A stretch of 64,000 nt of DNA from an uncultured bacterium (GCA_913009335.1 CAJVXN010000006.1:562-64561); one strand, 5' to 3'. Shown: positions 2,829 to 7,609, counted from the stretch's first letter. Notes: generated from the letters alone by a model not told the origin. Program-made: numbers and translations.

Positions 2829-3003
2829 CCGAAGGTCCGGATGTAGACTTTTTGGGGCAAATTTTTGTAAATCTTTGATTTTTTTGACATTGTGATTTTC
2901 TTTCTGTTTCTGAAAACAAAAAATTAAAAGGGGGGAAAAGAGAAAAAGCAATTCTTTTTTGGGGCAAAGCACCGCCGACTGGCGGGGCGATTTTGATGTT
3001 TTT
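2829..3003 (-). repeat. Left inverted repeat of cassette (inverted copy of miaB promoter plus decayed miaB start)
   Basis: Reverse complement aligns with 7424-7598. The promoter-proximal ~125 bp is near-identical; the coding-proximal ~50 bp is diverged and would encode MSKKSKIYKNLPQKVYIRTFG-stop, a truncated MiaB N-terminus. Confidence 0.8.
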
Positions 3004-3120
3004 GCGTCTTGTCCTTCGGGCAATCCGCACGTCAATTCCCTAATTATCGTTAAAAAGCAGAAGAAAAAGAAAACCCCCGCCCGAAATATTTAGAGTAAAT
3101 ATTTCCCCCTATTAAACTTC

Positions 3121-3155
3121 TTGACAATTTGTGTAAAGTAACGTAAAGTATAGAT
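3121..3155 (+). promoter_or_regulatory. Candidate sigma70-like promoter/operator for cassette operon
   Basis: TTGACA at 3121-3126, candidate -10 TAAAGT/TATAGAT, and direct repeat GTAAAGTA x2 (possible operator) immediately upstream of the ATG at 3160. No obvious SD, so possibly a leaderless transcript. Confidence 0.35.
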
Positions 3156-3159
3156 CATT

Positions 3160-3342
3160 ATGAAAAAGAGATATAATCTTAGCGAAGCGGCAGAAATATT
3201 AGGCTTAACTCGTCAAGGGCTTTATTATTGGATAAAGAAGGGATGGGTAACTCCTAAACGTGATTATAAAGGCCACCCTGTGTTTATGGATGCTGATTTA
3301 AAAAAAATTAAAAAATGGAAAGATAAATTAGAAGAGGTTTGA
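3160..3342 (+). CDS. Excisionase/Xis-family (AlpA/MerR-like) HTH DNA-binding protein, putative recombination directionality factor
   Basis: 60 aa. LSEAAEILGLTRQGLYYWIKKG fits the excisionase-family HTH consensus. 4-nt ATGA overlap with the next gene. Co-located with a serine recombinase. Confidence 0.55.
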   Translation: MKKRYNLSEAAEILGLTRQGLYYWIKKGWVTPKRDYKGHPVFMDADLKKIKKWKDKLEEV

Positions 3343-5951
3343 TTATGAAATGTGCACGTGGTTCTGAATGGCGAAAATGGGATTTACATTTGCATACACC
3401 ATCTTCCTATGACTATGATGATAAGTCAGTAACCAATAAAACTATTATAGAAAAGCTAAAAGAAAAAAACATATCGGTTGTTGCCATAACTGATCATCAT
3501 GCAATAGATCATGTGAGAATAAAAGAATTACAAGAATTAGGTAGGAAGGAAGATATCACTATATTTCCTGGGATTGAACTCAGGACGCAATTAGTAGCAA
3601 AGGAAAATATTCACTTAATCGCTGTTTTTTCACAAGAAGCAAATTTAGAGCATTTATCAAATGAGATCTTGACAAAACTTGAAATTAATTCTCAAAGACA
3701 AGATGGGGAAGGTGAGGATGTAATATTCTGTGATTATAAAAAGGTGCTATCTGTCGTTCGTGAATTAAATGGTTTAATAATTATTCATTGTGGGGAGAAA
3801 ACGCAAGGGATGGATGATGTAATTAAGAATGACACAAAAGTTAAAGAAGCGATTAAGGAGAAAATGGTTGAGGAAATAAATATATTTGAAATCGGCAATC
3901 CAGAAAAAGATATTGCGGGATATAAGGGAAAAGTTTTCTCGGACTTAAGTAGAAACTATCCACTTATACTATGCTCAGATAACCACGATATTAAGAAATA
4001 TTATACGGACAATAAATTGCCTACGTGGATTAAAGCAGATCCCAATTTTGAAGGTTTAAAGCAGATCATTTATGAACCAGACGATAGGGTGAAGATTCAA
4101 GAATTCAAACCCGAAGAAAAGGAAACTTATCAATTAATTGATAAAGTAAAGTTTATTGATGATAGTTTTATGCCTGATGAACTGCTAATAAATCAAAATT
4201 TGACAACAGTTATTGGAGGTAAATCGACAGGTAAATCAATCTTATTAAGGAATATTGCTCAGGCTGTTGATCCTCGTGAGGTTACCGTAAGACTAGATGA
4301 AGGGGGTTTAAAGCCATATTCCAAAGAAGTAGATGGCTTTAAGGTTATTTGGAAAGACAAACAAGAAAGCGATAAAGAAACTGGAGATGTAAACAAAAAA
4401 ATAATCTACATACCTCAATCTTATTTAAATAGGTTAGTAGAAAAAGAGGGTAAAATAAGTGCGGTAGATAATATTATCGAAAACGTTTTAAAGCAGACGA
4501 TGGGACAGGTTTATGATGCGTTGTCATTTTTTGAAAGAACGAATAAACAAGATATAGCAAACAACATTGCGCTATTGTTTAATCTTAAAAAAGATTGGGA
4601 GGAGCAAAAAGAAAAAATAAAAAACATTGGAGATAAAAAAGGAATAGAGTTGGAACTCAAAATATTGGAAGAACAAATTGCAGAACTAAAGAAAACGTCA
4701 GGATTAAGCGACAATGAAATTGTAGAATACGATAATTATGTGCACCAAATAAAGACACTTACAAATCAAATTGAAATAAATAATTCAGATAAAATAGAGC
4801 TGGGGAAATTAAAGCAAAAGGATATTTTTCGAGAAATTTTATTTGGCGATTTATCAGACAGCTTACAAAGCGAAATGGAAACATTTTACAATGAACTGAA
4901 AGGTATAGCTGTTGACAAATGGAAGACTAAAATAGATGATAAAATTGAAGCTCAATCAGAAATCTTGAAGGCAAAGCAGGAAACGCTGCGTAAGGTTAAA
5001 ATTAAATTTTCTCCATTATTGGAAAAGGCAAAAAAAGTTGCAGCATTAAATGAAAAAATCAAACAGATTGAAATTCAACAGGGGAAATTAAGACATATAC
5101 AAGGTGAAGAAAAATCGCTAGAAGCTATACAGGCCAAATTTAAACAAACCATTATTAATCTTGAAAGTGCCAACTCTAAATTTTATGAAAAGTACCTTGA
5201 GGGAAAAAGAGAAATATTGGGGCAAGATATTATATCTGGTGATTTAACATTTCATTTAGAAGTCCAACATAAAACTCAATTTTTTCAAAATGATTTTATA
5301 AATGAAGTTTTTGACATGAGGCAATTGCCCAATGAACTTTCAGAATATGAATTTAAAGATAATGATAATTTTTCACATACTATAAAAGAAATAATCAATA
5401 AAATATTAAGTAAGAAATTAGCTCTAAAAGGGCGTTACACAGAGCAGGAGGCATTGACAAAGCTTTTGCAGAATTGGTATACGTTTGATTATCAAATTGA
5501 GCAGGGCGGCGATAGCATTTCTGATATGTCACCTGGGAAGAAATCCTTTGTTTTACTAAAGCTGTTAATCGAACTTGATAGCAGTAAATGCCCTATTTTA
5601 CTGGATCAACCGGAAGATGATTTGGATAACCGTTCAATATATGACGATTTAGTTAAATTTATTAAAAATAAAAAAAAAGAACGTCAAATCATCGTTGTTA
5701 CACATAATCCAAATTTAGTTGTTGGGGCAGATGCTGAATGCGTAATTGTGGCGAATCAAAAAGGAACATATTCCGAGAATAAAGAGTATCAGTTTGAGTA
5801 TATATCTGGCGCATTAGAAAACACTTTTATCACTATGGATGAAACTAAAACGTTGTACAAGCAGGGTGTTCAAGAGCATGTTTGCGAAGTTTTGGAAGGT
5901 GGCAGGGAAGCATTCGAAAAACGTAAGCAAAAATATGGGTTTAACTTATGA
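3339..5951 (+). CDS. PHP-domain phosphoesterase fused to Rad50/SbcC-like coiled-coil ABC ATPase (870 aa)
   Basis: N-terminal PHP motifs DLHLHT, ITDHH, GIEL, IIHCGE, CSDNHD. Walker A GGKSTGKS, a long Lys/Glu-rich coiled-coil region, signature-like MSPGKKSF, Walker [13 protein letters not shown]-loop VVTHNP. ATGA overlaps with both flanking genes. Confidence 0.6.
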
Positions 5952-7609
5952 AAGTATCAATCTACATTCGCGTATCAACCGAAGACCAAGCCCGTGAGGG
6001 CTATTCTTTAGAAGTCCAAAAGGAATATCTTGAAGCTTTTGCAATGCGTGAGGGCTATGAGATATTCAAAGTCTATTGTGATGAGGGGATTAGTGGGTAT
6101 GAAACTCGGCGGCCTGCTTTGCAGGAGTTACTTTTAGATGCAAAGGCAAAGAAATTTGATCTGGTGTTAGCTCATAAGATTGATCGATTTAGCCGAAAAC
6201 TTAAAGACCTTTTAGATTTGGTTGAGAAATTAGAAGGTTATGGCGTAGGTTTTAAATCTGCAACTGAGCCGTTTGATACAACAACATCAGCGGGAAAATT
6301 GATGTTTCAACAATTAGGGAGCTTTGCCGAGTTTGAACGCAATAGGATTTCTGAGCGAGTATTTCCTGGAATGGTTAAGGGTGTTCAGCAAGGGAATTGG
6401 CAGGGAGCGAGATTCTCGCCATTTGGTTATACTTACAATAAACAAAAGAAGCTATTAGAAATTGAAAGCAGGGAAGCGGATATTGTTAAACTGATTTATA
6501 CAATGTATCTGGCAGGTAAAAGTACGCATGAGATTACTGAATATTTAAACAGGAAAAAATATCAAACAAGAACAGGTAAACAATTTTACAGCAAGTTTAT
6601 TGGTGACATTTTAAAGAATAGGATTTATACTGGTAAAATTGTGTGGAATAAAAAGCATTATGATAAGAATCAAAAGACGAAGAAACATTACAAGTATATT
6701 AAAAATGATCCTTCAAAAATAATAATTGCTCAAGGCAAGCATACGTCAATTATAGATGAACAGACTTTTGAAGAAGTGCAGAAGCTATTAGCGGAAAAGA
6801 AAAGGACGTGGCGGCCAAGAGTTAAAAATAAGGAATACCTTTTAACCGGTCTGCTTACTTGCGCAAAGTGTAATCATAAATATACTGGTGTATCATCAAT
6901 ATCTAATCATAGAACCAATAAAAAGAAACGGTGGTATCGTTGCTCCGGGCCTTATGCAAGTCATATTAGATGCACAAATAGGTCAGTTAAGGCAGAGGAT
7001 ATTGAGCCGGAAGTTACAAAAATAGTTGCTCAATTAGTACAAAATGACAGGTTAAAACAGAGCCAATGGATGAGCGGGACTTTGTCAAAAATGGCAAATT
7101 TCCCTAATTTTGGCGAAAACAGCAAAATTGACTTCTCCGAAGCCAAAGATAAGCTAAAAATCAACCAGAAAAAACAATCAAAGCTTACAGATGCTTATTT
7201 AGATAATTTGCTGGGTGAGGATGTGTTTCGTGGTAAGATAGAAGAACTTCGCAAAGGGGAAGATGAACTAAAGAAACTCCTTGCTGGATATGAACTTAGG
7301 GAAATTGAGAGCGAGAGATCAGAAGGGTATATTAACAGAGTAAAAGACTTTTTAGACGGGTACGATGAGAGCAAGACGAAGGTAGATTTTACTACCAAGA
7401 AAGTGATGTGCGGACTGCTTTTTAAAAACATCAAAATCGCCCCGCCAGTCGGCGGTGCTTTGCCCCAAAAAAGAATTGCTTTTTCTCTTTTTCCCCCTTT
7501 TAATTTTTTGTTTTCAGAAACAGAAAGAAAATCACAATGTCAAGAGAATCAAAGACTTACAAAAATTCGCCGAAAAAAATCTACATCCGTACCTTCGGAT
7601 GTCAAATGA
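5948..7609 (+). CDS. Large serine recombinase (resolvase catalytic domain + recombinase domain + zinc ribbon + coiled coil)
   Basis: N-terminal YIRVSTEDQ (catalytic Ser) and DRFSR; recombinase domain; Cys-rich CAKCNHKY...[12 protein letters not shown]; C-terminal coiled coil. The last ~55 codons read into the inverted repeat, so the true stop is uncertain. Confidence 0.8.
7424..7598 (+). repeat. Right inverted repeat of cassette = promoter region and 5' end of miaB
   Basis: Inverted match to 2829-3003. Contains the hairpin CGCCCCGCCAGTCGGCGG and the miaB ATG at 7537. Confidence 0.8.

Follow-up and report, generated by a model that had tools for sequence, protein, structure and literature searches.

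A recombinase cassette with inverted arms at the miaB 5' end, a probable member of a large family of minimal serine-integrase elements

Introduction

Why should the start of miaB, a gene coding for a radical-SAM methylthiotransferase, be present twice and in opposite orientations on the two sides of a small recombinase cassette? This question is raised by a 64,000-nucleotide (nt) stretch of DNA from an uncultured bacterium (GCA_913009335.1 CAJVXN010000006.1:562-64561, the whole of which is called the window below), where a helix-turn-helix (HTH) gene, an ATPase gene and a gene for a large serine recombinase (LSR) lie between two inverted repeats, the second of which holds the start of miaB. 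A first-pass annotation made from the sequence alone had taken these repeats for duplications of the miaB promoter and 5' end. The analysis described here leads to another account that we regard as probable, namely that the cassette is an integrated minimal serine-integrase element of a large family that docked at miaB, that one of its arms is inverted, and that the island around it formed by serial docking.

Structure of the repeat arms and of the recombinase

Inverted pairs were screened in the first 12 kb of the window, where the only pair longer than 29 nt that was found has arms at 2826-3003 and 7424-7601 that are 178 nt long, 94% complementary and separated by 4420 nt. This result bears out the ~175-bp inverted repeats that had been described as bracketing the cassette. 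A base-by-base alignment of the two arms has no gaps and 10 differing positions, one of which falls in the inner ~125 nt and nine in the outer ~53 nt, the part that is made up of the 21 miaB-like codons. An independent contig from a marine metagenome (L001, ENA ERZ909565, 4887 nt) is 100% identical to window positions 2882-7768, and no further copies of the repeat unit (termed U), of the sequence beyond the left repeat (termed X) or of the LSR were found in the 64-kb window.

The right repeat, U_R (7424..7601, plus strand), contains the 3' end of the LSR gene, a spacer, an ATG at 7537 and 21 replacement miaB codons that end at a TTCGG-A-TG core at 7594-7601, with the TG at 7600-7601. The left repeat, U_L (2826..3003, minus strand), is the same unit inverted, with an LSR 3'-end fragment, a hairpin, the spacer, an ATG at 2890 and 21 miaB-like codons that run to a core CA (minus-strand TG) at 2826-2827. 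Specifically, a tblastn comparison matched LSR residues 493-550 to window positions 3003-2830 with 91% identity.

The LSR gene (5948..7609, plus strand) codes for 553 amino acids (aa) with Resolvase, Recombinase and Zn_ribbon_recom domains (PF00239, E=9.7e-41, residues 5-151; PF07508, 9.2e-23; PF13408, 1.4e-12). The protein thus has the features by which a large serine recombinase is recognized, an N-terminal resolvase domain followed by a recombinase domain and a zinc ribbon in a C-terminal extension of >300 aa, and its catalytic region also matches the catalytic domain of the TP901-1 integrase (7e-24). It aligns with the SPbeta integrase SprA/YokA (solved structure 9dxh) across residues 6-525 of 553. 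Residues 493-525 are encoded by U_R and residues 526-553 form an unconserved tail that is read over the miaB start in another frame, which agrees with the earlier statement that the LSR reading frame runs into the right repeat. Since the alignment with SprA reaches residue 525, window positions 7424-7522, which is over half of the repeat, are true recombinase coding sequence.

The repeat also contains the hairpin CACCGCC-GACT-GGCGGGG that had been noted by the first-pass annotation and interpreted, in the left copy, as a terminator of read-through from the upstream gajAB genes. The hairpin exists, and its opposite strand encodes the LSR residues APPVGGA. As a terminator it was not flagged by our scan, its stem having a mismatch and its T-run beginning only 5 nt beyond the stem. 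A consensus scan found no sigma-70-like promoter inside the repeat.

The repeat unit accompanies the recombinase across hosts

With the LSR as query, a protein search brought up 1668 homologues; identity to the query is 60-90% for the best 120, and many of these lie on 4-5-kb contigs. We fetched 122 related loci and classified their junctions by BLAST and by a junction scan over the non-redundant loci. About 120 loci, mostly from Omnitrophota, share the LSR, the HTH gene and U with differing cargo. The earlier proposal of a recombinase-mobilised cassette at the miaB 5' end is supported. At 42 non-redundant loci U lies directly 3' of the LSR gene and is fused to a full-length miaB at TFG|CQMN. 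Identity of U to that of the window is 82-93% in the closer relatives and 71-81% in the remoter LSR clades, with host sequences diverging from the very next base. The LSR is 55-86% identical across loci as compared with 37-58% for MiaB and 35-57% for MiaA, and this difference between LSR and MiaB indicates that the element moves horizontally.

These comparisons also define what U is made of. Following its first ~100 nt of LSR coding sequence, the remainder of U consists of a spacer and 21 replacement miaB codons and ends at the core, which has the general form TTCGG-N-TG. The native miaB starts preserved in the canonical left junctions described below are shorter and different, with the form MK(K)(I/V)YI(R/K)TFG. 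The repeat is therefore not a copy of the miaB promoter as had been thought, given that the closer relatives conserve U much better than they do host MiaB, that its first part codes for the LSR and that native miaB leaders do not resemble it.

The C-termini of the LSRs, including the ~60 residues encoded by U_R, are conserved to ..KKSTS among the top 120 homologues and then fall into a few tail classes. One class stops a few codons further on, as a result of reading the miaB CQMN codons out of frame. A second class (SADPWFVLYKLAKPFF...) is the LSR-frame translation of the left flank in the window (reverse complement of 2720-2826). On the left side of the window cassette there is a 21-codon leader open reading frame, MSKKSKIYKNLPQKVYIRTFG-stop (2825..2890, minus strand), whose TGA stop is formed by the first bases of X. 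A reading frame that ends in TFG-stop is likewise present at the X junction of most relatives, and in a few the frame continues for ~10 codons into X. The left copy had been described as a decayed and truncated MiaB N-terminus, a view that is at odds with the recurrence of this 21-codon frame at most X junctions with a stop provided by X's first triplet.

Attachment sites and the point of crossover

Four relatives (L024, L099, L074 and L100) have a canonical layout in which the native miaB promoter and a short leader are joined at TTCGG-N-TG to directly oriented X (attL), after which come the HTH gene, cargo, the LSR gene and U|miaB (attR). These sequences identify the native miaB start as attB and U|X as attP, with the element bringing in a longer replacement leader (21 codons in the window). 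The LSRs of L024 and L100 are 58% and 87% identical, respectively, to that of the window. In L024 the host-type sequence GACGTTCGG is kept in attL and the element-type sequence GACTTTTGG in attR, which places the crossover to the right of TTCGG and within N-TG. A crossover at the center of the 20-bp palindrome ACATCCG-N6-CGGATGT was rejected, as attL and attR of L024 differ at the central positions. In the window this palindrome has 7-bp arms (ACATCCG-TACCTT-CGGATGT; 7583-7602, minus strand), lies at the attR core and is followed by a T-run, so that the scan flagged it as terminator-like; it is a by-product of the coding sequence and lies entirely within the element/host-leader arm.

In regard to the window itself, an attR is present as U|miaB at TTCGG-A-TG (7594-7601), with U_R as its element arm. 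A direct attL is not found there, the left junction being a reverse-complemented U joined to a reverse-complemented X, that is, inverted and with an element-type arm. Junctions that lead from an LSR gene to U|X occur at 31 loci and are equally explicable as array junctions or as assembly-graph walks.

The inverted left junction and the proposed explanation

When the junction nearest upstream of the LSR gene was classified, inverted U|X was found at 35 non-redundant loci (window included) and a direct junction at four, with a single locus (L019) having miaB on both sides; the two miaB alleles of L019 are different and this contig may be chimeric. Long inverted arms, which had been considered unusual for serine-recombinase elements, are hence the norm of this family. 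In the window and in the 34 other loci the layout is X(rc)|U(rc) - cassette - U|miaB, where rc stands for reverse complement. The repeat is always bounded on its inner side by the block AAAAACATCAAAATCGCC, within the LSR 3' end, and on its outer side by the core. LSR clades that share 62-86% identity have a homologous inner flank at the left arm, with hairpins followed by a GGGTGGG box. In the window this conserved flank (3004..3159, plus strand) holds hairpins, a CCCCCGCCCGAAA box and, at 3121-3149 in front of the HTH gene, a promoter-like TTGACA-17-TAAAGT.

L005, L008, L010, L013, L014, L016, L020 and L083 each have two arms that match at 100% along the full unit, and U differs by 10-20% between genomes. 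This identity within genomes suggests that gene conversion or recombination occurs between the arms. Heterologous arms are present in L015, L037 and L069. Canonical and inverted layouts are interleaved among the LSR clades, with L100 being canonical in spite of the closeness of its LSR to that of the window, which indicates that the change in layout is recurrent or that modules have been exchanged. L021 and L081 are the only contigs with exact terminal inverted repeats (99 nt and 120 nt, respectively), ends that are expected of an assembly that was halted within perfect U arms to either side of a cassette.

Because the two sites are head-to-head, an LSR reaction between them is predicted to invert the cassette and not to excise it. 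Among the 24 loci at which both junctions are readable, none is clearly flipped and 18 have the HTH gene facing X and the LSR gene facing miaB, so that orientation appears fixed in this comparison. It may be that miaB requires read-through from the cassette operon and that flipped variants are counter-selected.

Our explanation of this locus is as follows. Each family member is built from an HTH gene, an LSR gene and cargo that varies and is in large part defence-like, and it attaches at the conserved TFG|CQMN codons near the start of miaB. Its attP overlaps the 3' end of the LSR gene and carries the spacer and the replacement miaB start, and integration at TTCGG-N-TG would re-create an intact miaB (attR = U|miaB) that is probably transcribed from the cassette. 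The left repeat would be a second U joined to X in inverted orientation, and as such an attP-like junction that faces the opposite way. With flanking sites that are head-to-head the LSR could only invert the cassette, which would be effectively locked in place. The U|miaB junction would still be attB-like and could act as a docking site for further cassettes, with serial docking shifting older cassettes to the left and building up a defence island upstream of miaB. Recombination or gene conversion between the arms would maintain their similarity or identity.

Arrays, module exchange and cargo

Multiple units are present at several loci. In L026 and L069 the order is [decayed LSR - U|X direct] - four genes - [X(rc)|U(rc)] - HTH-cargo-LSR - U|miaB, in which the X copies form inverted repeats of 76-395 nt. 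L050, L015 and L091 have an extra HTH-headed unit downstream of U|X. In L052 and L109, U|X (or a variant termed Y) is followed by a few genes without a recombinase and by miaB with a short, native-type leader. These arrays fit serial docking at a regenerated U|miaB, with older units being pushed to the left and decaying.

Comparison of L004 with L052 revealed only one mismatch in 10,072 nt (L004:1-10227 = L052:1425-11651), a shared stretch that takes in the pilus operon of the host, X(rc)|U(rc) and the cassette in full and that ends about 20 nt inside U_R, from where these two near-identical strains diverge. The same LSR gene leads in one locus to an X-type arm and in the other to a Y-type arm, after which come three small genes and miaB of the native type. 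This alignment shows that the entire module of U plus flank was exchanged recently at an ultra-conserved block. Window positions 7412-7441 (CTGCTTTTTAAAAACATCAAAATCGCC) are the most conserved 30-nt window of the LSR gene (0.87 at the nucleotide level versus 0.6-0.8 elsewhere); they also bound every inverted repeat on its inner side and are the place where the L004/L052 swap has its breakpoint. A hotspot of recombination or a second functional site may be located in this block. The idea that U is more conserved overall than the LSR gene was rejected, as this 30-nt block alone stands out.

Cargo differs from locus to locus and, like the genes that lie left of X, is for the most part related to defence; it includes Ppl (window), Ppl-like proteins (L005, L014 and L020), DUF4238-Pers and RES (L003), RhuM (L004), AbiV-HEPN (L026) and Gabija (L044). 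To the left of X there is Gabija in the window, an Eco57I/MmeI-like restriction-modification (RM) gene in L005, and HerA with PD-(D/E)XK as well as M78-HTH with a Beta protein in L013. In L044 (408-3816) a complete Gabija system, with a GajA-like AAA_15+TOPRIM protein of 628 aa and a GajB-like UvrD protein of 517 aa, is located between the HTH and LSR genes. The Gabija systems of L044 and of the window are not closely related. The occurrence of Gabija as cargo suggests that the window Gabija may be the remnant of a neighboring cassette, and it is probably a neighboring cassette of the same island. In L003 (981-4034) a diversity-generating retroelement (RVT_1, bAvd and an Lcl_C target), a HepT/MNT pair and an IS110 transposase are found within a few kb of the cassette, indicating a mixed island of mobile and defence genes.

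The X and X4 regions

X (2409..2825, minus strand) starts after the core with an element-side (P'-type) arm of about 60 nt, continues with a series of GC-rich hairpins in what is an AT-rich genome, and includes a terminator-like stem at about 2493-2515 followed by a promoter-like site. It is present in all relatives examined, in direct orientation in the canonical ones, with counterparts at L024:640-1059, L074:89-508 and others. The X core of L024 is 91% identical to that of the window even though its LSR is so much less similar. Several stems in X have compensatory changes, with one hairpin exhibiting 10 CG-to-GC and 8 CG-to-UA exchanges, and since X is always located 3' of a miaB-type leader it should be transcribed. 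A search of window positions 1-12000 against Rfam at permissive thresholds gave no match, X being neither a tmRNA nor RNase P nor HEARO. As to function, X is a candidate accessory element made of structured RNA or DNA, and might act as RNA, as single-stranded DNA or as a site for protein binding.

Conservation reaches outward as far as an imperfect palindrome termed X4 (GGCAAGCGCAC...GTGATTGCC; 2320..2408, minus strand) that abuts the gajB stop codon, and the promoter-like site of X (2492-2465, minus strand) is directed at it. X4 sequences of about 80 nt (GGCAAGCGCAC...GACTGTGATTGCC) are also present at L013:2721-2812 and 6272-6347, L052:7850-7940 and L005:2621-2700, the two in L013 being in direct orientation. 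They occur directly 3' of the stop codons of unrelated genes, namely gajB, pilO, an RM gene and a nuclease gene. X4 was also considered as an integron attC and was rejected on inspection as it is without R''/R' motifs.

Alternative explanations

Several observations weigh against the explanation given above. Canonical integration leaves all sites pointing in one direction and no LSR reaction yields an inverted site; deriving the inverted layout on paper from canonical arrays by LSR reactions proved impossible unless an inverted site already existed. No excised circle, which would appear as a contig with terminal overlap, was found among about 120 loci, and no att-like junction was found at the outer end of X4, where the neighbors are gajB (window), pilO (L052) and an RM gene (L005). 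Moreover, the arms of the window are only 94% identical, which is barely over the 92-93% to the closest foreign U, and the perfect identity of arms in other loci may partly reflect assemblers that collapse near-identical repeats. A reading that is possible, if doubtful, is that the window shows only the right part of a larger composite whose true left end, with a host miaB start and direct X, is located beyond the window and whose Gabija genes are cargo between inverted X copies, with the inverted U|X being an internal site of a circle that integrates via its right-hand attP. Such a circle could bring an inverted site from one host to another, the arrangement in L026 and L069 is precisely of this kind, and the window ends 2.3 kb to the left of X, within gajA. 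However, in L052/L004 a host type IV pilus/type II secretion operon abuts X4 without a direct X, and no direct X lies within 6-9 kb leftward in L013, L037, L055 and L112. A platform of long residence, with horizontal swapping of its modules, is the alternative to a circle with an internal inverted site. The inverted-arm form might also be a resident, integron- or shufflon-like LSR cassette platform that is locked upstream of a tRNA-modification operon, and that uses two outward att-type sites to capture, exchange and possibly invert defence cassettes, recombinase-less ones included. X and the ultra-conserved block would then act as accessory sites or RNAs, and expression of miaB would be tied to the element as a form of addiction. 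We put this forward as a speculative proposal that is rather unlikely to be correct.

Inverted sites also bring to mind a programmed switch, in line with the possible inversion raised by the first-pass annotation, in which the LSR often flips the 4.4-kb segment and orientation controls expression of cargo, miaB or the X transcript. Head-to-head sites with the recombinase gene inside the segment are what is seen with hin, both arms carry the LSR 3' end so that this gene is intact either way, and the within-genome identity of the arms suggests continuing exchange. In addition, inversion of DNA between inverted sites has been proposed for the XisF-like serine recombinases of Calothrix (PMC11249958), and L051, where the LSR gene reads into X and then into ten convergent genes on a contig that begins inside the other arm, resembles the expected flipped state. 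What makes frequent switching improbable is that none of the readable loci has the reverse of the orientation seen in 18 of them, L019 being ambiguous, and that the two states would be near-equivalent, since the arms are the same module and no gene is obviously switched. We also rejected X-type LSR tails as proof of flipping or of circles, as P0048 and P0049 have identical bodies and different tails (miaB-type and X-type), a pair that can be explained by a de Bruijn-graph walk across a perfect repeat that exceeds k in length; contigs running from the LSR gene to X could have the same origin. Far less credible is an unrelated rearrangement that duplicated the host's own miaB promoter in inverted orientation, the cassette having no part in this beyond its position between the copies. 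The repeat does include the miaB start codon and 21 codons, but U accompanies the LSR through hosts with a MiaB identity of about 46%, it stops at one and the same position at every locus, and it consists mostly of LSR coding sequence next to a leader that differs from the shorter native ones. Finally, we see almost no chance that the repeat is an assembly artefact, a mis-join or a collapsed repeat. It is true that many related contigs end inside the repeat or X and that short reads cannot phase perfect repeats longer than k; however, the window arms are distinct at 10 positions, L001 confirms window positions 2882-7768 independently, and 35 loci from many samples and assemblers repeat the architecture.

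Relation to known systems

As an integrated serine-integrase element, the cassette can be compared with phiC31, Bxb1 and SPbeta, whose integrases (SprA of SPbeta inserts into spsM) have the same three-domain LSR architecture and are encoded next to attP. In the relatives, recombination of attB with attP likewise forms attL and attR in a coding gene at a short core. In contrast to these phages, the family element is only about 3-8 kb in size and without phage genes, its attP overlaps the 3' end of the integrase gene and carries a replacement 5' end for the target gene, and most members have head-to-head sites with inverted repeats of 155-360 nt. SCCmec, which is mobilized by Ccr LSRs at rlmH/orfX, is similar in that cargo cassettes insert at the end of a conserved gene, regenerate the site and form tandem arrays. 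SCCmec differs by targeting the gene's 3' end and by having direct repeats, no inverted arm and no replacement 5' end.

The Hin/Gin/Pin invertases also combine a recombinase gene with a segment bounded by inverted repeats, and LSR residues 40-153 have DNA-invertase matches. However, those proteins are about 190 aa long with a C-terminal HTH and act on 26-34-bp sites plus an enhancer, with both orientations readily seen, whereas here a 553-aa LSR is found with 178-nt arms and without a clearly flipped locus; the LSR is thus not a small invertase. There is also a likeness to integrons, in that a resident recombinase is located beside a docking site where cassettes accumulate, some of them recombinase-less (L052 and L109). 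The family is not an integron, as it lacks an IntI tyrosine recombinase, attC/attI sites and the logic of a Pc promoter, and its only recombinase is a serine recombinase.

The tycheposons of Prochlorococcus are small elements that combine an integrase with cargo and grow into islands with degenerate remnants by repeated integration at one site (bioRxiv 10.1101/2020.12.28.424599), which is akin to the serial docking and decay in L026, L069 and L050. Tycheposons mostly use tyrosine recombinases, target tRNA/tmRNA genes, have direct partial-tRNA repeats and in many cases carry replication genes (bioRxiv 10.1101/2020.12.28.424599), unlike the present elements with their LSR, miaB 5' coding target, inverted arm and absence of replication genes. 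XisF-type serine recombinases of heterocystous cyanobacteria (Calothrix NIES-4101) have been proposed to invert as well as excise DNA (PMC11249958), and they resemble the present case in having an LSR encoded beside inverted repeats and a predicted inversion. XisF systems are developmental, restore nif genes and have 5-20 nt cores without a replacement gene start, as opposed to the arms of about 180 nt here.

With >1600 homologues and about 120 loci inspected, this is a very large family of minimal serine-integrase elements that ferry anti-phage systems in poorly known phyla (Omnitrophota, Auribacterota and Elusimicrobia). Our literature search found no paper linking large serine recombinases with miaB, and the family is apparently undescribed in the literature searched. 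What is new relative to known serine-integrase elements is the combination of an element-borne replacement gene start with head-to-head sites. Insertion into the start of a conserved gene is non-disruptive because the element supplies a replacement start that is fused to the 3' end of its own integrase gene, and head-to-head sites, which canonical integration cannot produce, pose the question of lock-in versus inversion versus cassette exchange in most members. The family is also of interest for genome engineering as it offers many natural LSR/attP/attB triplets with a defined ~22-bp core as well as a landing site that regenerates itself.

Genes in the cassette and beside it

The genes annotated in and upstream of the cassette (an HTH, a PHP-ATPase, the 553-aa LSR, a MiaB-like gene and GajA/GajB upstream) are all as had been described. 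The first cassette gene (3160..3342, plus strand) codes for a 60-aa HTH protein of the MerR/excisionase type (MerR_1, 5.9e-7; HTH_17, 3.1e-5; mad1, 5.1e-9) that is HTH_17-like and belongs to the backbone of the family, being 52-83% identical to its counterparts in relatives. It is a candidate regulator or recombination directionality factor. The cargo gene (3339..5951, plus strand) codes for a Ppl-type PHP protein with an SMC/ABC ATPase, of 870 aa from a TTG at 3339 or 868 aa from an ATG at 3345, the latter start being that called on L001. Its PHP domain (PF02811, 4.2e-7) is accompanied by SMC_N/AAA_21 matches; residues 8-310 align with positions 4-308 of the 894 of the PADLOC Ppl model (9.5e-34), and the C-terminal half matches PDC-M49A and not Ppl. 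Of the two ATGA overlaps that had been taken to couple these genes, the one at 5948 is present and the one at 3339 is a TTGA, given the TTG start, with the called ATG lying at 3345. The view that the cassette is no prophage holds, as only three genes and no structural genes lie between the repeats, the cargo (Ppl) is a defence gene, and a scan of IMG/VR returned a single weak relative (50% identical).

To the left of X there are the C-terminal part of GajA, cut by the window edge (38-883, plus strand; 2.3e-81, C-terminal 281 aa only), and GajB, a UvrD-like helicase (868-2313, plus strand; 1.8e-137). This pair, an ATPase-TOPRIM GajA followed by GajB and located directly beside X, constitutes a Gabija system. 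The DNA between it and the left repeat (2320-2825) is non-coding and rich in GC. To the right, miaB (7537..9423, plus strand) codes for a MiaB-like radical-SAM methylthiotransferase with first 21 codons that are element-derived and a host part that starts at CQMN, and it is followed by GDPD (9464-10318) and MiaA (10331-11239). An exact-protein look-up for the window MiaB and GajB with two start choices returned no record, and no TRAM domain was detected in the window MiaB protein. This protein (628 aa) is fused to TPR and SPOR domains, a fusion also present in L057, and most relatives have a miaB of about 400-450 aa and a separate TPR-SPOR gene.

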